Assembly (NCBI RefSeq): GCF_988243305.1
Contig: NZ_OZ547136.1
Direction: 5' to 3' (one strand)
Length of the DNA: 64,000 bases
In this document: positions 4,095 to 18,048 of the stretch, piece by piece
Layout of the letters: each line of letters begins with the position of its first letter
How positions within the stretch are numbered: the first letter of the stretch is position 1
Program-made: the position numbers and the translations under genes
Notes under the pieces: model-generated
The model's input: the letters and a program-made list of their open reading frames with translations, nothing else
What the model was told of the DNA's origin: nothing
The model's database searches: none

Positions 4095-4388
4095 ATGAAA
4101 AAAATGTTGTTTTCTGCCGCTCTGGCAATGCTTATTACAGGATGTGCTCAACAGACGTTTACTGTTGGAAACAAACCGACAGCAGTAACACCAAAGGAAA
4201 CCATCACCCATCACTTCTTCGTTTCGGGAATTGGACAGGAGAAAACTGTTGATGCAGCCAAAATTTGTGGCGGCGCAGAAAATGTTGTTAAAACAGAAAC
4301 CCAGCAAACATTCGTAAATGGATTGCTCGGTTTTATTACTTTAGGCATTTATACTCCGCTGGAAGCGCGTGTGTATTGCTCACAATAA
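4095..4388 (+). CDS. bor: Bor lipoprotein (serum resistance)
   Basis: I trimmed the start to MKKMLFSAALAMLITGCAQQTFTV... (97 aa). It has a lipobox LITGC and its C-terminus ...GIYTPLEARVYCSQ matches lambda Bor. Confidence 0.9.
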   Translation: MKKMLFSAALAMLITGCAQQTFTVGNKPTAVTPKETITHHFFVSGIGQEKTVDAAKICGGAENVVKTETQQTFVNGLLGFITLGIYTPLEARVYCSQ

Positions 4389-4419: not shown

Positions 4420-4881
4420 CTATCTGCACTGCTCATTAATATACTTCTGGGTTCCTTCCAGTTGTTTTTGCATAGTGATCAGCCTCTCTCTGAGGGTGAA
4501 ATAATCCCGTTCAGCGGTGTCTGCCAGTCGGGGGGAGGCTGCATTATCCACGCCGGAGGCGGTGGTGGCTTCACGCACTGACTGACAGACTGCTTTGATG
4601 TGCAACCGACGACGACCAGCGGCAACATCATCACGCAGAGCATCATTTTCAGCTTTCGCATTAGCTAACTCCTTCGTGTATTTTTCATCCAGTGCAGCAA
4701 CATCACGCTGGCGCATCTGCATGTCAGTAATTGCCGCGTTCGCCAGCTTCAGTTCTCTGGCATTTTTGTCGCGCTGGGCTTTGTAGGTAATGGCGTTATC
4801 ACGGTAATGATTAACAGCCCATGACAGGCAGACGATGATGCAGATAACCAGAGCGGAGATAATCGCGGTTACTCTGTTCAT
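4420..4881 (-). CDS. Rz: Rz inner-membrane spanin
   Basis: I trimmed the start to [39 protein letters not shown]... (153 aa), lambda Rz-like. An ATGA overlap links it to the endolysin stop. Confidence 0.9.
4479..4661 (-). CDS. Rz1: Rz1 outer-membrane lipoprotein spanin, embedded in Rz
   Basis: The 60-aa [55 protein letters not shown] lies in the +1 frame inside Rz. It has a lipobox and is proline-rich. Confidence 0.9.
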
Positions 4882-5375
4882 TGCTGACCCCACAAACAGA
4901 TTTCACGCTCAATCTCACGACGAGTCATGAGACCTTTCCATTGCTTACCGCCAGCATATGTCCAGCGACGTAGCTGATCACATGCGCCTTTGATATCGCC
5001 CTGGTTTATTTTGCGAAGAAGCGTCGATGTTCTGAAATTGCCAGCGCCCACGTTGTAAACGAACGAGTAAAGAGCGCCGCGCGTTGTTTCCGGTATATCA
5101 ACTTTGATGTACGGGTTAATTTGTCTGGCGACCGTGGCAAGGTCTTTATTCAGGAGGGCTTTGCATTCTGCTTTGGTATACGTTTTACCGAGCATGATGT
5201 CTTTTCCTGTATGCCCGTGACATACAGTCCATACACCAACAATATCTTTGTATGGTATGTAGCTGACACCTTCCAGACCATCGTTACCACTTGGGCCAGT
5301 AATTAACACTGATGCTATAGCAATTGCTCCGCCACCAATAGCAGCAGCAACGGCTTTTCGTAATGATGGAGGCAT
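4878..5375 (-). CDS. R: SAR endolysin (P21 R / RrrD-type lysozyme)
   Basis: The 165-aa ORF has a Gly/Ala-rich N-terminal signal-anchor-release segment ([18 protein letters not shown]) followed by a T4-lysozyme-like core. Confidence 0.9.
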
Positions 5376-5590
5376 TATTCACCTCTCGCAGCCTTGCGCT
5401 TATCTTCTTTAATCTTGAAATAAAGGTTTGTCAGGTACGTCAGCAGGCCAAATACCAGGCTACCCAGCACACCTATTGCTGCCCACTGTGAGGGCGTGAC
5501 TTTATCGAGCAGCTGTAAAAACCAGTAGCCAGCACTGCCTGCGGAGGTGCCGTAGGCAATGCCTGTTGAAATTTTGTCCATGGATTTCAT
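5375..5590 (-). CDS. S: Pinholin, S21/EssD type (dual-start motif MKSM)
   Basis: I trimmed the start to [71 protein letters not shown] (71 aa). It has two TM segments and lies directly upstream of the endolysin. Confidence 0.85.
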
Positions 5591-5841
5591 AGCCTCACCT
5601 CCGCACGGAACGGATGGCATAGTTATTATGTGTAGGCTTTCAGACACATCAATCAGAGCCTTAATTGATATATATGCTGGAGACGATGCAATATAAAAAG
5701 CTCGCCATAGCGAGCTAATAAAATGTATTTCTCTGATATTATGTTTATTTGTATTAGCTCAGACTTGACATCACAGGTTTCGTATATAGAACATCATCAA
5801 ATCTGTCAGTTTGCTATGAATGAGATATAGTAATTGAAGAG

Positions 5842-6237
5842 CTAACCTCGCATGTCAAAGCCAGATTTCTGAAAATCTCTGTAGACTTCCGGATTGTTGA
5901 AGGCCGGAAATTTGGCTTTATGAGCTGCGGACTTTATCGCTTCGCAATAGGCTTTATCACCGTTACTGGTAGATATTTTTAACGCCGTGCCATCCTGAGA
6001 GAATTCCATATGCAACCTGCATTTTTTCCCTTTCCAGTTATGCGGCTCATCAAGTTTGGCATTAATTGCAGCTCTGATTCCCCGCGCTTGCGCCCCCCAT
6101 TCATCCTGATCATCCCAGCGTCCTGAACTGCAACTACCTGTAGCAGTAGTTTTGTGGCAATCTGAAGGGTGTAAAGGTGTGCATCCCGCAACAAAACCGA
6201 CCCAAAAAGTCAACATAACGATTTTCTTTAATCCCAC
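5842..6237 (-). CDS. Lipoprotein with a weak TolA C-terminal-domain-like region
   Basis: The signal peptide ends in the lipobox FVAGC. The C-terminal part KKCRLHMEFSQDGTALKISTSNGDKAYCEAIKSAAHKAKFPAFNNPEVYRDFQ keeps the two-Cys TolAIII-like pattern. Confidence 0.55.
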   Translation of the reverse strand: MGLKKIVMLTFWVGFVAGCTPLHPSDCHKTTATGSCSSGRWDDQDEWGAQARGIRAAINAKLDEPHNWKGKKCRLHMEFSQDGTALKISTSNGDKAYCEAIKSAAHKAKFPAFNNPEVYRDFQKSGFDMRG

Positions 6238-6387
6238 TTCTTGCTCCTCAATCCATTAAAATCTCAGCAATAGTAGTTGTTACGTCCGCCACTGGCTCAG
6301 AGCTGACTATCCGCTAAATTTAGCTCAGTGCCGTAGCTGTGTCAGAACAAACCTAAGCCGAAACCGTTTATTACAAAACAATAAATA

Positions 6388-6816
6388 TCAGGGTTTAAAA
6401 TCCAGCACCCCATTTTGAAATACTTTATATACTTCCGGCGAAGGGGGGGCAGGTATATCAGCATTCTTTATCGCATTCATCGCTTCACGACATAAATCGA
6501 GGTCTCCACTTTCTCTTTTAACCTCCAGTAGAAGGCCATTCGGGGCCATATGCATTCTCAGTGTACACTCTTTTCCTGAATACTTACTCGCATCCCCGAA
6601 CTGTTTTTCGATGGCGCTCTTGATTTGATGGGCATACAGACGGATATTCTCACTAACATCAGAAGTACGTTCAGATGAACTCACATACTGTGTCTCTATT
6701 GCTTTATCGGAGTAATATGATGTACGGTCATGATAATTTGTCGATACAGCATCAGTGCACCCGATAATAATCCCACTAATAATCAACGTAAGAATTGATG
6801 CGCTACGAAAACCCAT
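6388..6816 (-). CDS. Lipoprotein carrying a TolA domain III (C-terminal domain) homologue
   Basis: It has a lipobox IIIGC. The C-terminal 80 aa YAHQIKSAIEKQFGDASKYSGKECTLRMHMAPNGLLLEVKRESGDLDLCREAMNAIKNADIPAPPSPEVYKVFQNGVLDFKP align by eye to the remembered E. coli TolA C-terminus. Confidence 0.75.
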   Translation of the reverse strand: MGFRSASILTLIISGIIIGCTDAVSTNYHDRTSYYSDKAIETQYVSSSERTSDVSENIRLYAHQIKSAIEKQFGDASKYSGKECTLRMHMAPNGLLLEVKRESGDLDLCREAMNAIKNADIPAPPSPEVYKVFQNGVLDFKP

Positions 6817-7349
6817 TTTTCCTCACATATGTCATATAGTAAAGGATTATATATACCGTTGTTTTGGACGCTCAAACAGCGAATCAGATCAAATAAAACG
6901 CACATTTGTTAACATTTACACAAAGTCTGCGTGGGATATTCTGAAAGAATATCCATAATGTGGAGAGAATCTATTGAAGTGCATGGTGCCGGGTGCCTCC
7001 CGGTGAATTCAGTACCAGCACCTGAATCCGCGATTATCCCATATACCTACTCGCTGATTGCCCCTCCGCACAGGGGGATTCACCATGCCAGTTTCTTTTA
7101 ACAAACTCCCCGCAAACCAGAGAACAGTCAACCGCCTGAATTGTGAAGTATTTAAAAATTTCTCCCGCTAACTGATACCCGGCTAACAGTCTGGCGTTTT
7201 CTTTTTCAGCAACGGGAAAGCAACAACCACCACACCCGCCACCAGCACACCGTCAGCCAGCACTGACATTATCCGGCTGCTGCAATGCCATTCACAAAAA
7301 CAGTAAGCAATCACTTTTTACCGTAACAGGTGATAATCCAGATATGTAT

Positions 7350-7703
7350 CTACCCCAGATGAGTAATCCGAAGTTCATCCATACCACAGGTCCTGGCTAT
7401 TCTGTTGTACTCCTGAACAAGAGCAAATAATTCTGAATTAGCAACCATGAACTCATCGCAAACCCTCTGTATAGCATCACTATTCAGAAGAATAACGTCT
7501 CTTCCCGAAAGACGATCAGGAGTACAGAACAAAACTGTCAAACGGCTGAAGGCCTTTGCTCGTGCTGCATTGACTATATCAATACGCTGCCTAAGGATGA
7601 AACACCCCGACGCCTCATCAATATTCACTCTACCCACACCATATGAATGATAAATATTTAATGCTGAAAAAACCATTAGACCGTATAACAAACACTCAAT
7701 CAA
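7350..7703 (-). CDS. Hypothetical protein (117 aa) in an AT-rich moron region
   Basis: This is the only long ORF between the tRNAs and the lipoprotein genes. I recognise no family. Confidence 0.4.
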   Translation of the reverse strand: MIECLLYGLMVFSALNIYHSYGVGRVNIDEASGCFILRQRIDIVNAARAKAFSRLTVLFCTPDRLSGRDVILLNSDAIQRVCDEFMVANSELFALVQEYNRIARTCGMDELRITHLG

Positions 7704-7813: not shown

Positions 7814-7890
7814 TGGCGCGCTGTACTGGATTCGAACCAGTAACCGATTGCTTAGAAGGCAATTGCTCTGTCCGGCTGAGCTAACAACGC
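7814..7890 (-). tRNA. tRNA-Arg (anticodon UCU, reads AGA)
   Basis: The reverse complement GCGTTGTTAGCTCAGCCGGACAGAGCAATTGCCTTCTAAGCAATCGGTTACTGGTTCGAATCCAGTACAGCGCGCCA folds as a cloverleaf. The acceptor stem GCGTTGT/ACAGCGC pairs, the anticodon loop is CT-TCT-AA, TPsiC is GGTTCGAATCC, and the CCA is encoded. Confidence 0.9.
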
Positions 7891-7994: not shown

Positions 7995-8070
7995 TGGTGG
8001 CCCTTGCTGGATTTGAACCAGCGACCTGGCGATTATGAGTCGCTCGCTCTCACCACTGAGCTAAAGGGCC
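7995..8070 (-). tRNA. tRNA with CAU anticodon, ileX/ileZ-like (Ile2, lysidine-type) rather than Met
   Basis: The reverse complement GGCCCTTTAGCTCAGTGGTGAGAGCGAGCGACTCATAATCGCCAGGTCGCTGGTTCAAATCCAGCAAGGGCCACCA closely resembles E. coli ileX as I recall it. The acceptor stem is GGCCCTT/AAGGGCC. Confidence 0.85.
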
Positions 8071-8106: not shown

Positions 8107-8133
8107 AATAAAAAACCCGCTCGGCGGCGGGTT
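8107..8133 (-). terminator. tR'-like intrinsic terminator downstream of the late promoter
   Basis: The minus strand reads AACCCGCCGCCGAGCGGGTTTTTTATT, a GC stem followed by a U-run. It lies between Q and the tRNAs. Confidence 0.6.
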
Positions 8134-8213: not shown

Positions 8214-9035
8214 TTACCTAGTTACCTTTTTTAACTGCCGCTCAGCCCATCCTTCTTCAATATCAAACCGGGTCACCAGCGCATCATAGAATTTCTTAAC
8301 TGTTTTTTCCCATGACGCGCGTGTTATCTGGTTTGTCACCTCGCATATAGCATTAAATGCCTCCGTTGATGGTAGTCTTTCATAGCCACGACCACCACAA
8401 CGCTGGCAGTCTCTGATAACAGGCATACCACGTTTTACCGACTCTTCACGGTGAATGGCGACACCACGCCCACGGCAATCCTTACAGGCGGTGGAAACCT
8501 CACCCTTTCCGCCACACTCCGGACAGGCAACTTTTACCACCTCCCTGACTTTTTTCCATTCTTCCCAGTAAGACGGATACACACCTTTCGTACACTTTGC
8601 CCATACCGGCGGCTTACCATCCGGATACTGGACCTTGTTTGTAAAAACTACGCTTTCAATAAATTTTTCCCCATAGCAACAAGGGCACTGCTTTTTACTC
8701 GCTGCGCTGCGGGCATAATCCTCAAAAGCGTACGAAGCCATAATGCGCATCACTACCGGTTTTATTTCTGCCGGAAGTTTTCTCAACGCCGCCACACGAT
8801 CGCACCGACTGAGTGCATAATCTGCCAGTAATTCTGTTGCCCGCGCCCTGTCATTCATACTGATGCCCATTTTCCCCAGGAACGCAGAAAACCCCATCTC
8901 AGCCCGATTCTGTGTCATGCCCTGCGCGGCCATCACATCAGTGATACTCAGCGCATCTTTTGACGTTGAGGCCGATGCATCGGTCAGGCAAGGGGATTTT
9001 GGGGAGTAGTATTTCGGTAAATCTTCCAGTTTCAT
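8214..9035 (-). CDS. Late-gene antiterminator Q
   Basis: The 273-aa ORF has repeated CxxC zinc-ribbon motifs (CPCCYG, CPECGGKG, CKDCRGRG, CQRCGGRG). Its position between rusA and pR' is typical of the Qin/P21-type Q family. Confidence 0.8.
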   Translation of the reverse strand: MKLEDLPKYYSPKSPCLTDASASTSKDALSITDVMAAQGMTQNRAEMGFSAFLGKMGISMNDRARATELLADYALSRCDRVAALRKLPAEIKPVVMRIMASYAFEDYARSAASKKQCPCCYGEKFIESVVFTNKVQYPDGKPPVWAKCTKGVYPSYWEEWKKVREVVKVACPECGGKGEVSTACKDCRGRGVAIHREESVKRGMPVIRDCQRCGGRGYERLPSTEAFNAICEVTNQITRASWEKTVKKFYDALVTRFDIEEGWAERQLKKVTR

Positions 9036-11791: not shown

Positions 11792-12991
11792 ATGCCATTT
11801 GTTATTTATGTGTTTACTATCAGTGCCTTTGCGCTCGGACTCGCGGAATTTGTCCCCATTGGGCTGACAGACGTTATGGCTCAGGGGTTGTGTGTGGGTG
11901 TGGAGCAGACCGGGGCAGCGGTTACAACCTATGCACTGGGGGCAACGTTCGCGGCACCCGTACTGTCTGCGCTGACAGCAAGCTGGAGCCGGAAAAATGT
12001 AATGCTTACAACTGCCGTTGTGTTTACTGCCGGTAGTCTGGCGGCCGCGTTTGCAGCCACATTACCTCAGCTCCTGTTAGCGCGGTTCATTGCTGGTCTG
12101 GGACACGGCCTGTTTCTGGCTGCGGCATCCAGTACCGCAGCTCGTCTTGCTGGACCGGGTAAAGCAGGCAGAGCGGTGGCTGTGGTATTTGGTGGCTTTA
12201 CTCTGGCGATGGCAATCGGCGTACCGCTGAGTACATGGTTGGGGGGGGTGGTCTCATGGCGTCCAGTTCTCGGCGCTATTGCCGCTTTTGGCGCGTTCGG
12301 ATTCCTTGGACTGTTGTTCGGTATGAAAGATCCCGTACGCAGCGTGCCCGGTGAACATAGTGACTCAGCAATGCAGAATATCGGCATGCTGTTTAACCGT
12401 AAGTTGCTGGCCGGCGCGCTGGTTACGGTGCTGGCGTATGCAGGCTCGTTTACGGCTTACACCTTTATCGCACCTATTCTGACGCAGGTGACAGGGGTTA
12501 CCGGAGCAAAGGTGAGTCTGTTTATGCTGGTTTACGGTATTACAGCTGCGGTAGGTAATATTCTTGGTGGGAAACTTACCGACAGCATGGGGGTTAATCG
12601 TGCCAATATACTCATCATTAGCGGCATTGTTGTTGTCGTGCTTGGTATGTGGCTGCTGTCATCCTCACCGGTGAGCATGGGCATTCTGGTTGCGCTGCTG
12701 GGTATGGTGACATTTGCCGCAGTGCCGGCACTGCAGGCCCGTCTGATTGGTGTCGCTGAGCAACATGCTCCTCATGCGCATGGTGTTGCTGCCGGCCTGA
12801 ATATTGCGGGCTTCAACTCAGGTATAGCGCTGGGATCAGTACTGGGCAGCATTACTATAAGCCACGCCGGTATCGTGTATACCGGTATCAGCGGTGCGAT
12901 TGTTTCTCTGCTCGGCCTGCTGTTGCTGCTTGCACAAATCCGTCGCAGCCACAGTCGTAAATTTCAACAGGTTAAAATCGTAGGCCAGTAA
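11792..12991 (+). CDS. MFS transporter (12-TM, sugar/drug efflux-like)
   Basis: The 399-aa ORF is uniformly hydrophobic and has MFS_1-like loop motifs (GLGHGLF, GRAVAVVFGG). Confidence 0.85.
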   Translation: MPFVIYVFTISAFALGLAEFVPIGLTDVMAQGLCVGVEQTGAAVTTYALGATFAAPVLSALTASWSRKNVMLTTAVVFTAGSLAAAFAATLPQLLLARFIAGLGHGLFLAAASSTAARLAGPGKAGRAVAVVFGGFTLAMAIGVPLSTWLGGVVSWRPVLGAIAAFGAFGFLGLLFGMKDPVRSVPGEHSDSAMQNIGMLFNRKLLAGALVTVLAYAGSFTAYTFIAPILTQVTGVTGAKVSLFMLVYGITAAVGNILGGKLTDSMGVNRANILIISGIVVVVLGMWLLSSSPVSMGILVALLGMVTFAAVPALQARLIGVAEQHAPHAHGVAAGLNIAGFNSGIALGSVLGSITISHAGIVYTGISGAIVSLLGLLLLLAQIRRSHSRKFQQVKIVGQ

Positions 12992-13002
12992 AGGGAGGTT
13001 AT

Positions 13003-13695
13003 ATGCTTACCCGTGAAAATATGCTTAATGGCACATTTGTCAGGGTGCATGAAGCGCTGCTCCCGGCGAATATGCTCTGGGACGCTGAAAAAATACGCGC
13101 ATCAATGAACTCTACTCTGGAGGAGCGCCCGACGGGTGCTCCTTTCTGGATATTTGCCTACGGGTCATTGATGTGGAATCCCGTGCTGGCAATTGAAGAA
13201 ATGCAACGGGCCCGTCTGAAAGGATGGCAGCGCAGTTTCTGCATTCGTTTGATATCCGGACGAGCGACTCCTGATGTCCCCGGCAGGATGTTATCGCTCG
13301 ACGAAGGTGGAATTACCGAAGGTATTGCGTTCAGACTGCCGGAATCGACTCTTATTAATGAGCTGGAAATTGTCTGGACGCGCGAGATGATAACCGGTCT
13401 TTACCGTCCGGTCTGGGCAGACGTTTCGCTAGGAAACGGTGAGGAAATTCAGGCGCTGGCTTTCGTATCAGACAGACTGCATCCGCATTATGAACAGGAC
13501 AATCTTACAGCGACCGTAGCGTTGAGCATCGCATCTGCCCGTGGAGACATTGGCACGAATGCAGATTATGTATGGAAACTGCAGGCCACTCTGGGTGCGT
13601 TGGGAATACGGGATGATTACGTGAGTGAACTGGCCCTTGCTCTGCATGAGGCTCCCTGTAACGATAAACTTCATCAGCGAGGCGCTTCACTATGA
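13003..13695 (+). CDS. ChaC-family gamma-glutamylcyclotransferase
   Basis: It carries FWIFAYGSLMWNP...PGRMLSL..GG...G.AFRL...REM motifs, as in E. coli ChaC. Confidence 0.8.
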   Translation: MLTRENMLNGTFVRVHEALLPANMLWDAEKIRASMNSTLEERPTGAPFWIFAYGSLMWNPVLAIEEMQRARLKGWQRSFCIRLISGRATPDVPGRMLSLDEGGITEGIAFRLPESTLINELEIVWTREMITGLYRPVWADVSLGNGEEIQALAFVSDRLHPHYEQDNLTATVALSIASARGDIGTNADYVWKLQATLGALGIRDDYVSELALALHEAPCNDKLHQRGASL

Positions 13696-14573
13696 GCCAT
13701 CTGAGCCATCTGCGAACGTTTCTTGAGGCCTATCGCTCTGGCTCCTTTTCAAAGGCGGCAGAACTACTGGGCATCACTCAGCCCGCGGCGTCACAGCATA
13801 TCCAGTCTCTTGAGACTCTGGTTGGTAAGCGTCTGTTTATCAGGCAGGCCAGAGGCGTGACGGCAACCGAAGCTGCGGATGAGCTTGCCCGCTCAGTTTC
13901 ACCCTTCATTGATGGTCTGGAAGAAAAGCTGTCCTCTTTCCGGTCAGGCTCTGTACACGGGGGAACAATTAATCTGGCAGGACCGCCAGATTTTATTCAT
14001 TCCCGGCTTGGGACAGTAATGGCTCCACTAATGAAGGAGGGGTATCGCCTACGCTTTCATACCGGCAATAAGCAACGTATTTATTCCCTTTTGCATGACG
14101 GGAGCGCCGATCTCGCTGTTACCGCATCTATGCCTGATGACCGTCTGTACGGCTATGCACATCTACTGACTGAACGCATGCTCCTTGTTCATGCTCCCGC
14201 CATGTCAGAGATCATCGGATCAGAACCTGGTGCTGAAACGCTTGCCTCATTACCGCTGATTGCTTATGACGAAGAGTTGCCACTGATTAGAGCGCTCTGG
14301 GCCTCCATGTTTCAGAGAGCCCCTGAGATGCAGGCTACATTCACCATTCCGGATTTACGTATTATCCGCGACTTGGTCTGTGACGGCCACGGGTGGACAG
14401 TGCTGCCGGATTATCACTGTGACAATGACCTGAAAAGTGGTCGCCTGATTTCAGTGACACCTGCAGACCTCGCTCCGACTAATCATCTTTATCTGGTCTG
14501 GAACAAAAGGACGGCTAATAACAGCCGAACCGCCTATGTTCGGGATTACATTCTTAAAACGTTTCCGCGTTGA
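13692..14573 (+). CDS. LysR-family transcriptional regulator
   Basis: It has an N-terminal HTH LRTFLEAYRSGSFSKAAELLGITQPAASQHIQSLE, and its 293-aa length is typical of the family. Confidence 0.85.
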   Translation: MSHLSHLRTFLEAYRSGSFSKAAELLGITQPAASQHIQSLETLVGKRLFIRQARGVTATEAADELARSVSPFIDGLEEKLSSFRSGSVHGGTINLAGPPDFIHSRLGTVMAPLMKEGYRLRFHTGNKQRIYSLLHDGSADLAVTASMPDDRLYGYAHLLTERMLLVHAPAMSEIIGSEPGAETLASLPLIAYDEELPLIRALWASMFQRAPEMQATFTIPDLRIIRDLVCDGHGWTVLPDYHCDNDLKSGRLISVTPADLAPTNHLYLVWNKRTANNSRTAYVRDYILKTFPR

Positions 14574-14703
14574 TGTTTGAAACGGATGATTGGCGATGTG
14601 TATCATAAGTTACGTATGTCCGCTTCTGGCACAAAGCAGACGCCCACTCTCACGCGAATGCTTTGCCCTTGACTTGCCAACAACCGTATCGCTTGCTCCG
14701 CAA

Positions 14704-15996
14704 CTATGGTTTTTTATTAGAACCTTCGCCACTAAATAAATTATAATAAATTGATTTTATTAGATATCTGTCAGAATCTATATGGTCAGCACGAGTAGCA
14801 TGCTCTAATGTTTCAAATGCTAGGGTTTGTGCGGCTTCAGCAAAAATTCCAGGCCAACCCTTACTCAGCATCGACAGTCCTTTAAGTACCCTTATCTGAA
14901 TTTCCCTCATACTGGCACCATCGCGCGCAACAGGTGAGAAAAAGTCTTCAAGTAGATCGTTATTCTGAAGTGGTGCAACATGTACAGAAGGATATTTCAC
15001 TTCTATTTCATCAGATTTATTCTGCGCGTAAGCGGAAAGTATACGTACACCTCTGCCAATGACATCAATGGCGGTTCCAGGATCGTTCACTGCGGGGGAA
15101 AGGGCTCGGCAGGCTATTTCGGCCATGACGCTAAGACAAAATCGGGGGTCCTGAGCAAATGAACGTACATCCGAGACAATAATCGTCTCAAGTAAATCGG
15201 TGCTGATTGATGACTCCTGGCCCTGACTCAGGTACAAAACTGGCGTGGACGGATGTATGAAACTGCCCGGCTGCGCCACGAGGTATACATGACGGGGATC
15301 ATTGGTCAGCAGCTTGCTGAGTTTCACCATATCAACATATTCAACATAGCCAATCTTTTTCGGATAAACTGCAACCGTTCCTTTCGGCTGTTCATTGTTC
15401 TCAAGCCATGGATATCCGCCGAGACAGGGATTTCTTGCTCTCGCAATAAATGTTTCGATGGCCGCCTGTTCTACTTTTGCCGTTGTCTCACCAACCCTCC
15501 CCAGAGAGGTCAAATGCTGTATCCAGCGAAGCAATGTGATGAGGATTAAGGCAATGACAACCAGTGTTACAATGAATAAAATGACTCTCCCCCTTTCTCC
15601 ATAAGCTCCCATATTGAGGGCAATAATCCCTACCAGACTGAAGAGAAAAGAACCGATGAAGGTGGCCAGTACATTTTGTGTGGTGACGTCTTCAACAACT
15701 AAACGAGTAGCTCTGGGAGTCACATTAGTAGTGGCTGAACCGTAGGCTGTGACCATGATGCTCAGCGAAAATGTGGTCACTGCCAGCATACTCGATGCCA
15801 GTATGTTCAGAATGTTATCGACTGCTTCCGCACCAACCTTCACGGAAACCGACTCAGGTATCATTGATTTAAAAAGAATTGATAAAAGGGCCGTTATTAT
15901 TGCGACAATTGCGAATAACGTTGCCCTGAACCATAGTTTTTTAAATGTCTGCTTCAGCATCCATTTCCAGCGTGAAATCATTCTGCATTCCCTCAT
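14704..15996 (-). CDS. DUF2254-family membrane protein
   Basis: It has four N-terminal TM helices followed by a soluble domain. The start could be the internal MISRWKW (15981). Confidence 0.7.
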   Translation of the reverse strand: MRECRMISRWKWMLKQTFKKLWFRATLFAIVAIITALLSILFKSMIPESVSVKVGAEAVDNILNILASSMLAVTTFSLSIMVTAYGSATTNVTPRATRLVVEDVTTQNVLATFIGSFLFSLVGIIALNMGAYGERGRVILFIVTLVVIALILITLLRWIQHLTSLGRVGETTAKVEQAAIETFIARARNPCLGGYPWLENNEQPKGTVAVYPKKIGYVEYVDMVKLSKLLTNDPRHVYLVAQPGSFIHPSTPVLYLSQGQESSISTDLLETIIVSDVRSFAQDPRFCLSVMAEIACRALSPAVNDPGTAIDVIGRGVRILSAYAQNKSDEIEVKYPSVHVAPLQNNDLLEDFFSPVARDGASMREIQIRVLKGLSMLSKGWPGIFAEAAQTLAFETLEHATRADHIDSDRYLIKSIYYNLFSGEGSNKKP

Positions 15997-16044
15997 ATTG
16001 CAGCCGGGATAAATAAATGCCGCCTCTGTGGCGGCATGTTGCTG

Positions 16045-18048
16045 TTAACGAACCAGATGCAGGAAGTGCAGGTGTTTTTCGTACTGGTCCAGTATGTCAT
16101 TAATCAGCTGTTCCTGATTCCAGCCCATTACATCATAATTTTGGCCGCCCTCTTTGAGATAGACTTCAGCGCGATAATATCGATGTTGTTCACTCTGCTG
16201 CTCATCATTATCCAGCGCAGCGAGCGCGAAGGTCGGTGAGTTATACCCGCGAAGCCTCACTTCATATATATAATTCAGCTCGTTGCCCAAATCGACTTCA
16301 AGGCGAATACGATCCTCGGCGGCGTCACTGATGTGGCTTATCGTTCCCTGCTTGTTAAGTTCCTCCTGAACCAGCGTCATGGCGGGTTGGATAATGTCGT
16401 CCATAAAACGTTTCACAAGAGAGCGCTTCGGCAAATACGCGATATTGCGTAACCTTCTCTGCCAGGGAATTGGGTTACGTGCAGCCGTAGGAGCAATAGT
16501 CGCCATGCTAAGGCTTTCACGCTTGGTCAAATCCCGACGCAGGGCTTTTAACAGTCCGTATATGGATATTAATAAGATAACTGAGAAGGGCAATGCACTC
16601 GCTATCGTTACGGTTTGCAACGCACTCAGCCCCCCTGCGATCAGCAGGGCAATAGCAACAACGCCCATGAGCGATGCCCAGAAAATTCGCTGCCAGACGG
16701 GCGTGTTTGCCACCCCACCTGATGCCAGAGTATCCACAACCATTGCCCCCGAATCAGCAGACGTTACAAAGAAGACGATGACCATCGCCATTGCAATGAA
16801 TGACAGCACGGAAGAGAACGGGAAATGCTCCAGGAAATTAAACAGGGCAAGCGCAACATCCTGCTGAACGGTATTGGCGAGGTCAGTGGCGCCCTGGTTC
16901 ATGATGAGATAGATGGCGCTGTTTCCAAACACCGTCATCCACATGAGCGTAAAGCCGGCGGGAACAAACAACACGCCAGTCACGAACTCACGAATTGTCC
17001 TGCCGCGGGAAACGCGTGCAATGAACATACCTACAAACGGCGACCATGAAAGCCACCATCCCCAGTATAATAATGTCCAGCCCCCCAGCCAGTTGCTCGA
17101 CTTGGGTTCATACGCGTAAAGGTTGAACGTTTTACTCACCAGTTCCGACAGATAACCACCCGTATTTTCCACAAATGACTTCAGCAGAAGCACAGTGGGA
17201 CCCAGGCACAAGACCAGCGCCAGGAGCAACACCGCCAGGCCCAGATTAAGCTCAGACAGGATGCGTATTCCCTTGTCCAGGCCGGACACCACCGAAATCG
17301 TCGCTAACCCCGTGATGACCACGATCAAAATGACCTGTACCGTTTCATTGATGGGCACGCCGAAAAGATGGTTCAAACCGGCATTCACCTGCAATACACC
17401 GTAACCCAGTGATGTTGCAACGCCAAAGACAGTGCCTATCACGGCGAAGATATCAACCGCGTGGCCTATAGGCCCGTAAATGCGATCGCCGATAATGGGA
17501 TAGAGCGCAGAACGCAGCGTTAAAGGCAGACCGTGACGGTAACTGAAAAAGGCCAGAATCAGCGCCACGATGGCATAAATTGCCCATGCGTGCAGACCCC
17601 AGTGGAAGAACGTCAGGCGCATGGCTTCCTTCGCTGCCGCAACGGTCTCTGGAGTGCCGACAGGTGGCGAAAGATAATGCATCACAGGTTCGGCAACGCC
17701 AAAGAACATCAGGCCGATCCCCATCCCTGCCGAAAAAAGCATCGCGAACCAGGAGTGGTAGCTGAAATCAGGCTGCGCATGGTCTGGGCCCAGCTTTATA
17801 TCACCGTAACGTGAGAGTCCAAGGAACGTGACGCTCAGTAAAATCAGGGCCACAGCAAGTATGTAGAACCAGCTGGCATTCGTGAAGATTTGTTGCTGAA
17901 GTAGTTTAAAATTTTTGTCGGCGACATCCGGGAATACGGCGGCAAAGGCGACAAGAAGGAAAATTAGCAAAGCAGATGTAAAGAATACCGCTTTGTTAAT
18001 CTGGCTTGTAGACTTCTTTGGGGTTGTATCATTTTCACTCATAATCAT
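16045..18048 (-). CDS. BCCT-family transporter (BetT/choline-betaine-carnitine type)
   Basis: The 667-aa ORF carries the BCCT signature WTLLYWGWWLSWSPFVGMFIARVSRGRTIREF and a long cytoplasmic C-terminal extension, as in BetT. Confidence 0.85.
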   Translation of the reverse strand: MIMSENDTTPKKSTSQINKAVFFTSALLIFLLVAFAAVFPDVADKNFKLLQQQIFTNASWFYILAVALILLSVTFLGLSRYGDIKLGPDHAQPDFSYHSWFAMLFSAGMGIGLMFFGVAEPVMHYLSPPVGTPETVAAAKEAMRLTFFHWGLHAWAIYAIVALILAFFSYRHGLPLTLRSALYPIIGDRIYGPIGHAVDIFAVIGTVFGVATSLGYGVLQVNAGLNHLFGVPINETVQVILIVVITGLATISVVSGLDKGIRILSELNLGLAVLLLALVLCLGPTVLLLKSFVENTGGYLSELVSKTFNLYAYEPKSSNWLGGWTLLYWGWWLSWSPFVGMFIARVSRGRTIREFVTGVLFVPAGFTLMWMTVFGNSAIYLIMNQGATDLANTVQQDVALALFNFLEHFPFSSVLSFIAMAMVIVFFVTSADSGAMVVDTLASGGVANTPVWQRIFWASLMGVVAIALLIAGGLSALQTVTIASALPFSVILLISIYGLLKALRRDLTKRESLSMATIAPTAARNPIPWQRRLRNIAYLPKRSLVKRFMDDIIQPAMTLVQEELNKQGTISHISDAAEDRIRLEVDLGNELNYIYEVRLRGYNSPTFALAALDNDEQQSEQHRYYRAEVYLKEGGQNYDVMGWNQEQLINDILDQYEKHLHFLHLVR

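Follow-up and report, generated by a model that had tools for sequence, protein, structure and literature searches.

Group A colicins and filamentous phages enter by way of a common hub, TolA domain III (TolAIII), and tolerance to them usually arises through receptor or tol mutations that cripple the envelope. In Ff-infected cells, tolerance mediated by g3p targets the interface between TolAIII and its ligands, blocking colicins as well as superinfecting filamentous phage, and at the cell surface the phage lipoproteins Llp (T5) and Cor (phi80, N15 and HK022) inactivate the outer-membrane receptor FhuA. Levengood-Freyermuth, Click and Webster reportedly found in 1993 that periplasmic TolAIII confers colicin tolerance and reduces f1 infection. 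As described where it is used in PMC6195910, engineered periplasmic TolAIII (Wan & Baneyx 1998) perturbs the envelope and causes leakiness. Here we describe two adjacent genes, A and B, of a lambdoid prophage located at the Qin site, beside rspB, in contig NZ_OZ547136.1 (RefSeq assembly GCF_988243305.1). The window is the whole stretch analysed, 64,000 nucleotides, and coordinates given without a locus name refer to it. Each gene encodes a stand-alone TolAIII behind a predicted lipoprotein signal peptide, and their products, above all A, may act as natural decoys for ligands that enter through TolA.

6388-6816, minus strand: open reading frame (ORF) A, 142 aa, ATG start, GAGG Shine-Dalgarno sequence
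5842-6237, minus strand: ORF B, 131 aa, GTG start, GAGGAG 6 nt before the start

An earlier reading made from the letters alone (the sequence-only reading) had placed two minus-strand ORFs with lipobox signals between the Q/tRNA block and the holin gene, and both are found there. Against Pfam TolA_C (PF06519; curated cut-off, 25 bits), A scores 82 bits (E = 3.6e-23) and B 54.6 bits (E = 1.3e-14), and phmmer searches of the PDB recovered the solved E. coli TolAIII with either protein (A, E = 2e-27; B, E = 5e-9). Residues 56-142 of A align without gaps to E. coli TolA 335-421 at 59% identity (51/87), and B is 33% identical to the same domain (27/81); the TolA cysteines C363 and C388 are aligned in both proteins and are invariant in a sequence alignment of 48 relatives. 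The sequence-only reading had compared A with the E. coli TolA C-terminus, judging it identical at about half of positions, cysteines and terminal LDFKP included, and had seen in B a more distant version of the same C...C scaffold. The TolA sequence it used equals those of PDB 1s62 and 3qdp, and the measured identities bear out both judgements.

AlphaFold2 models built on family alignments give a pLDDT (predicted local distance difference test) of ~90 for residues 51-142 of A and >90 for residues 46-131 of B, with values <50 for residues 1-50 of A and for residues 1-26 and 31-35 of B, and of 40-55 in B up to about residue 40. Foldseek placed predicted A on PDB entry 2x9a_B (template modelling score (TM) 0.96, root-mean-square deviation 0.6 Å) and predicted B on 3qdp (TM 0.92, 1.1 Å). 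The top matches of both were TolAIII structures only, with TonB C-terminal domains far behind. This fold check had been set beforehand as the first of two that could overturn the proposal; it predicts that the domains of A and B adopt the TolAIII fold, alpha/beta with a three-stranded sheet on helices.

Although the fold and cysteine pair are those of E. coli TolA domain III (PDB 1S62, 3QDP, 1TOL, 2X9A; PF06519), we rejected the reading of A and B as TolA proper, as only domain III is kept. Domain I, the N-terminal transmembrane anchor for TolQ-TolR, is absent and lipoprotein signal peptides stand in its place; domain II, the long periplasm-spanning helix, is also absent, leaving a short linker in proteins of 142 and 131 aa, where TolA has 421 aa; and the genes lie outside the tol-pal operon, in the prophage late region from Q and the tRNAs to the holin. 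NCBIfam TolA models (NF007065 / TIGR02794) match A and B only over the last ~95 positions, the NF007065 equivalog giving 106 bits for A and 54 bits for B against a cut-off of 213. RefSeq names A 'tolA, cell envelope integrity protein TolA', though only domain III is present. This is an over-transferred and misleading name, explained by A exceeding the laxer TIGR02794 cut-off (75.1 vs 59.45). The RefSeq start of B is an internal ATG (124 aa) that truncates the signal peptide; because this ATG has no ribosome-binding site and its use loses the lysine-rich (KK) n-region conserved in all homologues, the 131-aa GTG start is the better call. In PHROGs, A and B are both in phrog_5772, 'unknown function'.

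The genes and their domain homology are therefore already known, in RefSeq annotation and PHROG 5772. Within the open-access literature, what appears to be new is the functional proposal, the existence of a large mobile-element-centred family of stand-alone TolAIII lipoproteins, and the pairing of TolAIII with TonB-C on bacteriocin plasmids. The sequence-only reading had supposed that the proposed function had seen no experimental test, in agreement with our finding no functional study of stand-alone TolAIII lipoproteins in open-access full-text literature, where the mentions are annotation tables and plasmid maps, apart from a match that concerns expression of host tolA.

Both signal peptides contain a lipobox ([LVI][ASTVI][GAS]C), IIIG-C20 in A and FVAG-C19 in B, as do 41 of 48 diverse short relatives. 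Under the Lol sorting rule, Asp at position +2 is the inner-membrane retention (Lol-avoidance) signal. A and B both have Thr at +2, and Asp occurs there in 0 of the 41 relatives, so that sorting to the outer membrane is predicted and A and B are probably lipidated, outer-membrane lipoproteins. In A, a Ser/Thr/Tyr-rich linker of ~30 residues, predicted to be disordered, leads to TolAIII at residues 51-142, with LDFKP at the C-terminus. In B, TolAIII spans residues 46-131, ends in FDMRG and follows a conserved Cys-containing linker (C27, C36). This linker, C-x-PLHPS-x-C-HKTTATGS-C-SSGRWDDQDEWG (B residues 19-47; window 6120-6180, minus strand), is nearly invariant across genera, has two extra cysteines and is modelled by AlphaFold2 with low confidence.

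The ligand-binding edges of TolAIII are well mapped. The N1 domain of g3p (g3p-N1), colicin N (ColN) and the TolB N-terminus each add a strand to beta3 at the C-terminal end of TolA (PMC4339652; review PMC7391070). The sequence requirement of beta3 is relaxed. D418P or K420P abolishes binding of all three ligands, and Y340A confers partial and I344D/I348D complete colicin resistance (PMC4339652). Colicin A (ColA) adds its strand to TolA L375-P380 on the opposite sheet edge, with cation-pi contacts to K368, K379 and K396 (PMC3365938). The same positions read as follows in A and B:

TolA beta3, L417-P421 (LDFKP): identical in A; FDMRG in B
TolA Y340, I344 and I348: kept in A; not scored in B
TolA ColA strand, L375-P380 (LLDIKP): LLEVKR in A; ALKIST in B
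TolA K379 and K396: kept in A; K379S and K396H in B
TolA K368: K368H in A; K368E in B

Because its beta3 is identical and its ColA strand is mostly kept, A looks like a faithful mimic of both E. coli TolAIII docking edges. B looks like a mimic of at most one, since most of its ColA site is lost; its beta3 (FDMR) retains D418 between beta-formers, which is compatible with the relaxed requirement of that strand.

We propose that A and B, above all A, are outer-membrane-tethered, motor-less TolAIII decoys, a reading that we place close to an even call but slightly on the doubtful side of it. Each protein would suspend TolA domain III by itself beneath the outer membrane, in the gap above the peptidoglycan cell wall where a linker of 26-30 residues would keep it; porin-threaded colicin domains and the tips of retracting pili would reach that gap ahead of TolA, which is anchored in the inner membrane. 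As TolA domains I and II are absent, A and B cannot couple to the TolQ-TolR motor. Ligands that add a strand would thus encounter the decoy first, on the inner side of the outer membrane, and energised TolA only beyond it; bound there unproductively, they would never be energised. The decoy would trap group A colicins (for example ColN and ColA) and related bacteriocins by their translocation domains, and filamentous phages that use F or I pili by the N1 domain of their g3p, so that the lysogen would gain colicin tolerance, exclusion of filamentous phages or both. ColN binds TolA at 1 µM and TolB does so at ~40 µM (PMC4339652), a difference suggesting that a modest amount of decoy could trap invaders with Tol-Pal still on.

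Several described systems are close to the proposal. Engineered TolAIII is likewise a free, motor-uncoupled TolAIII domain in the periplasm, but it is soluble and overproduced, whereas A and B are natural, predicted to be lipid-anchored, diverged in sequence and presumably present at low level. Llp, Cor and Bor/Iss resemble them as small phage-encoded outer-membrane lipoproteins that come from accessory genes and alter cell entry, the entry role of A and B being a proposed one. Llp and Cor, however, inactivate FhuA and have no sequence relation to A and B, whose only PHROG is 5772 and which would act on the incoming ligand. If the mechanism is real, it would be a variant of the exclusion lipoproteins in which a host hub of the periplasm is copied and no receptor at the surface is blocked. 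Tolerance mediated by g3p concerns the same TolAIII-ligand interface and is the mirror image of the proposal: there the ligand saturates the host receptor domain, whereas here a copy of the receptor would saturate the ligand.

The shared interface also admits an explanation in which invaders are incidental. A and B might bind the TolB N-terminus (or CpoB), compete with TolA and locally loosen the hold that Pal gives the outer membrane on the cell wall; the outcome would be more vesiculation, easier lysis and virion release from pR' just before the holin, or pilus or mating-pair assembly on plasmids, with colicin or phage tolerance as a side effect. The beta3 site retained in A and B is also the one to which TolB binds, and overproduced periplasmic TolAIII makes cells leaky. 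The TolA-TolB interaction is weak (~40 µM), however, so competition would need a high copy number. On all the evidence, including that from plasmids and from the flanks of the genes given below, we regard such modulation of Tol-Pal, the main rival of the decoy reading, as somewhat unlikely.

The distribution of the two genes bears on what they are for. Of 5426 complete E. coli genomes, 768 (about 14%) contain the 1.6-kb A/B region at a coverage of at least 80%. Among deposited phages one does, mEp460_ev081, which was also the only one recovered when the A protein was the query; the family is all but absent from sequenced free phages. In an IMG/VR sample of 80 loci from near-identical E. coli prophages, the order A-B-holin is kept in 79, whereas the Q module and endolysin type vary, indicating that the block travels as a cassette. 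A-type proteins occur in Escherichia and Shigella only, and the contexts seen are prophage only. A second lambdoid late region (Q-TfpB-AraC-A'-(esterase)-holin) has a single such protein, 65% identical to A, which we call A'; its domain is 78% identical to that of A, its linker 51% and its signal peptide 35%, and the ratio of nonsynonymous to synonymous substitutions per site (dN/dS, Nei-Gojobori throughout) between A and A' is 0.37. Proteins of the B type with 78-89% identity to B are encoded in Citrobacter, Enterobacter, Serratia, Klebsiella and Raoultella, and an 88%-identical copy is carried by ~600 E. coli and Shigella plasmids (IncF and IncI-complex). On pO157-type IncF plasmids it lies downstream of ssb-psiB-psiA-hok (locus L100 6815-7246, plus strand), and on a conjugative IncK2/Z plasmid it is flanked by trbC and the nikB relaxase gene (locus L103 8944-9375, plus strand). 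Between the window's B and its plasmid and chromosomal homologues, dN/dS is 0.08-0.14 at dS 0.5-1.1. The Enterobacter kobei gene is stand-alone and chromosomal, between a glutathione peroxidase gene and a RidA-like gene, the Serratia marcescens gene is chromosomal, between nrdG and a GmrSD/HEPN pair, and the retrieved neighbourhoods of both contain no phage genes. These two chromosomal genes are followed by defence-type genes (Mrr_cat and HEPN_AbiV in one case, GmrSD_N and a HEPN protein in the other; loci L086/L087 2373-4200 and L088-L090), which may reflect a variable defence-island setting.

Two suppositions of the sequence-only reading do not survive these data. It had treated A and B as diverged copies, and we rejected B as a diverged duplicate of A, given that the lineage of B is distinct, old and strongly conserved (dN/dS ~0.1), with chromosomal genes in Enterobacter and Serratia and genes on plasmids in E. 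coli and Shigella; and it had treated the genes as peculiar to prophages, whereas B-type genes are also found on plasmids and chromosomes. The distance between the lineages could mean that the roles are split, A being a recent, E. coli-specific TolAIII-mimic decoy and B an old family of periplasmic lipoproteins with a ligand of its own, bound partly through the Cys-loop linker, that was captured as cargo together with A. The two proteins are only 31% identical; A-type proteins, confined to Escherichia/Shigella and to prophages, evolve faster (dN/dS 0.37), and B-type proteins, encoded on both chromosomes and plasmids in six genera or more, have a dN/dS of ~0.1 and a nearly constant linker. Each type also occurs alone elsewhere, and dozens of further TolAIII lipoprotein clusters exist. 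Yet the linkage of A and B in 79 of 80 prophage loci suggests joint selection, B keeps a full predicted TolAIII fold with a beta3 compatible with strand addition, and our analysis found no candidate ligand for the B linker. We consider a division of this kind unlikely.

The same data dispose of passive carriage. Lambdoid late regions are mosaic and gather cargo, and A and B might in principle be debris, tolA fragments produced by illegitimate recombination; but purifying selection is strong at substantial synonymous divergence, the genes are maintained in 79/80 loci and kept in hundreds of genomes and plasmids, the ORFs are intact, with gained lipoprotein signals and good ribosome-binding sites, and the domains are predicted with high confidence. 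We rejected this account as scarcely credible.

Beyond the prophage, a profile search of 1.84 billion representatives gave 602 matches, the best 150 of which include several dozen separate clusters whose members are 115-150 aa long and share the architecture lipobox-linker-TolAIII; the two whose loci were retrieved are chromosomal. In PLSDB, tblastn detected genes for TolAIII alone on 1299 plasmids. Among these are many near-identical 10-kb ColRNAI Klebsiella plasmids, which encode a cloacin-type bacteriocin, an immunity protein, a lysis protein and a TolAIII lipoprotein of 123 aa (LLLTAC...PLDFRP; Pfam E = 2.4e-24). The gene of this lipoprotein overlaps by 4 nt that of a partner, a secreted protein of 121 aa with a TonB C-terminal domain only (PF03544, E = 8.9e-11).

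Locus L099 6111-6844, minus strand: TolAIII lipoprotein and TonB_C-only gene pair, Klebsiella pneumoniae plasmid NZ_CP082002.1

Klebsiella IncF plasmids carry another TolAIII lipoprotein, paired with a thioredoxin-like protein. All these plasmid proteins (Klebsiella ColRNAI and IncF, pO157-type IncF, IncK2/Z) share the lipobox-linker-TolAIII plan with A and B and differ in replicon and neighbourhood, the pO157 and IncK2/Z protein being 88% identical to B and the Klebsiella forms ~38-39% identical to A. The pili of IncF and IncI-complex plasmids are receptors for TolA-dependent filamentous phages. TolAIII-only genes on plasmids with such pili therefore fit the decoy reading, as do those on bacteriocin plasmids that also carry a TonB-C-only gene. 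TolAIII has been solved in complex with the g3p of Ff phage (1TOL) and with that of IF1, a phage of the I pilus (2X9A). TolAIII-only genes have been noted without comment on a plasmid map (PMC10269471).

The plasmids speak on both sides of the modulator explanation. A B-type gene between relaxase and trb genes (IncK2/Z), or near the leading region of pO157-type plasmids, would suit a role in transfer, but the TolAIII and TonB_C-only pair on bacteriocin plasmids is hard to explain as a modulator of Tol-Pal and easy to explain as a double decoy. Generalizing the decoy proposal, stand-alone TolAIII tethered to the outer membrane, on some plasmids together with a TonB C-terminal domain, might constitute a widespread and as yet unrecognised class of defence on prophages, bacteriocin plasmids and conjugative plasmids. 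Bacteriocins that depend on Tol or Ton, and filamentous phages specific to pili, would be trapped in the periplasm short of the energised machinery. We offer this wider claim tentatively and think it more apt to fail than to hold.

In the prophage late region, the genes are arranged in the following order, with A and B between the small RNA (sRNA) gene and the holin:

8214-9035, minus strand: late-gene antiterminator Q, 273 aa; an Antiterm (PF03589) protein of identical length is present in the related A'-type late region
8114-8133, minus strand: tR'-like intrinsic terminator directly downstream of Q, from a terminator scan
7995-8070, minus strand: tRNA(CAT), Ile in RefSeq annotation
7814-7890, minus strand: tRNA-Arg(TCT)
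7350-7703, minus strand: unannotated 117-aa ORF, no Pfam match
7183-7314, minus strand: DUF3927 small membrane protein
6927-7117, minus strand: STnc100-family prophage sRNA (RF02076), full-length match, 114 bits vs a gathering score of 47
6846-6875, minus strand: candidate sigma-70-like promoter, TTGAGC-18 nt-TATAAT, 10/12 consensus positions, ~30 nt upstream of the A start, from a consensus scan
5699-5716, minus strand: terminator-like GC hairpin and T-run, AGCTCGCTATGGCGAGCT TTTTATATTG, between the B stop and the holin start, a consensus match
5375-5590, minus strand: holin, essD-type, first gene of the lysis cassette
4878-5375, minus strand: endolysin
4420-4881, minus strand: Rz, with Rz1 embedded
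4479-4661, minus strand: Rz1 o-spanin, a lipoprotein gene inside Rz
4095-4388, plus strand: Bor/Iss serum-survival lipoprotein gene, on the opposite strand of the same late region, 1.5 kb from A/B

The promoter-like site before A and the hairpin after B form a classical moron layout of putative elements. The scan for promoters, which scores consensus matches only, returned 11 sites in the region vs 6.6 +/- 2.3 expected. GC content of the A/B region is somewhat below that of its flanks.

This setting, too, can be read in favour of Tol-Pal modulators, as A and B belong to the Q-dependent late operon and immediately precede the holin gene, and the strong conservation of B across genera would be expected for a conserved host partner. 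The promoter-like and terminator-like flanks, on the other hand, suggest expression independent of the late transcript, and the stand-alone chromosomal homologues have no lysis or transfer context.

Several observations weigh against the decoy reading itself. A and B lie inside the Q-dependent late transcript and might be expressed mainly in lytic growth, and the promoter and terminator that would allow expression in the lysogen are consensus matches only. B has lost most ColA-site residues (K368E, K379S, K396H) and has the conserved Cys-loop linker; moreover, its slow evolution and its stand-alone chromosomal occurrence with no phage genes nearby suggest a conserved host partner and not an arms race with invaders. 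If the decoy bound the N-terminus of TolB as well, it might carry a cost, namely leakiness of the tol type. A PADLOC search of A and B gave no match, and we infer the binding, localisation, expression and protective phenotype of the decoy from sequence. On balance, the decoy reading remains plausible, strengthened for A and questionable for B, whose partner may be a different and conserved one.

Should a transferable decoy exist, it would provide tolerance without the envelope cost and add a new mechanism to phage- and plasmid-encoded exclusion, with relevance to colicin- and phage-based therapeutics. Even a modest phenotype would be of epidemiological relevance, because the cassette is present in ~14% of complete E. 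coli genomes, the B-type gene on ~600 E. coli/Shigella plasmids, pO157-type ones included, and relatives on many epidemic Klebsiella plasmids. If their role is to tune Tol-Pal, A and B would offer natural tools to control vesiculation and the integrity of the outer membrane.

The sequence-only reading had located the genes in the slot where Stx phages carry stx. That this is a slot for late-region cargo stands, but the exact position differs. In Stx1 phage 75/02, whose order is Q-stxA-stxB-shared segment-nanS-p esterase-holin, the shared segment, identical to window 6981-7089, separates stxAB from the nanS-p esterase gene. A and B therefore take the esterase position just downstream of the stx position, which is held here by the DUF3927 gene and the 117-aa ORF, two genes conserved together at 97-100% in the IMG/VR prophages. 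The STnc100 sRNA gene, directly upstream of A, is in a ~200-bp segment common to Stx phages just downstream of stxB. Phage JLK-2012 carries tciA/tciB and yjhS in the same region, and the Qin prophage of K-12 has cspB/cspF there. We rejected identification of A or B with the colicin-resistance gene tciB, as tciB of phage JLK-2012 adjoins the shared non-coding/sRNA segment (window 6981-7186) and not A/B. According to a 2026 preprint, STnc100 is related to the PasD sRNAs.

Elsewhere in the same Qin-site prophage, between its replication region and hokD, lies apparently non-phage cargo: genes for a BCCT transporter, a DUF2254 protein, a LysR regulator, a gamma-glutamylcyclotransferase and an MFS transporter.

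Window ~11800-18000 (L001 15194-19383; L102 46001-49001): non-phage cargo of the Qin-site prophage

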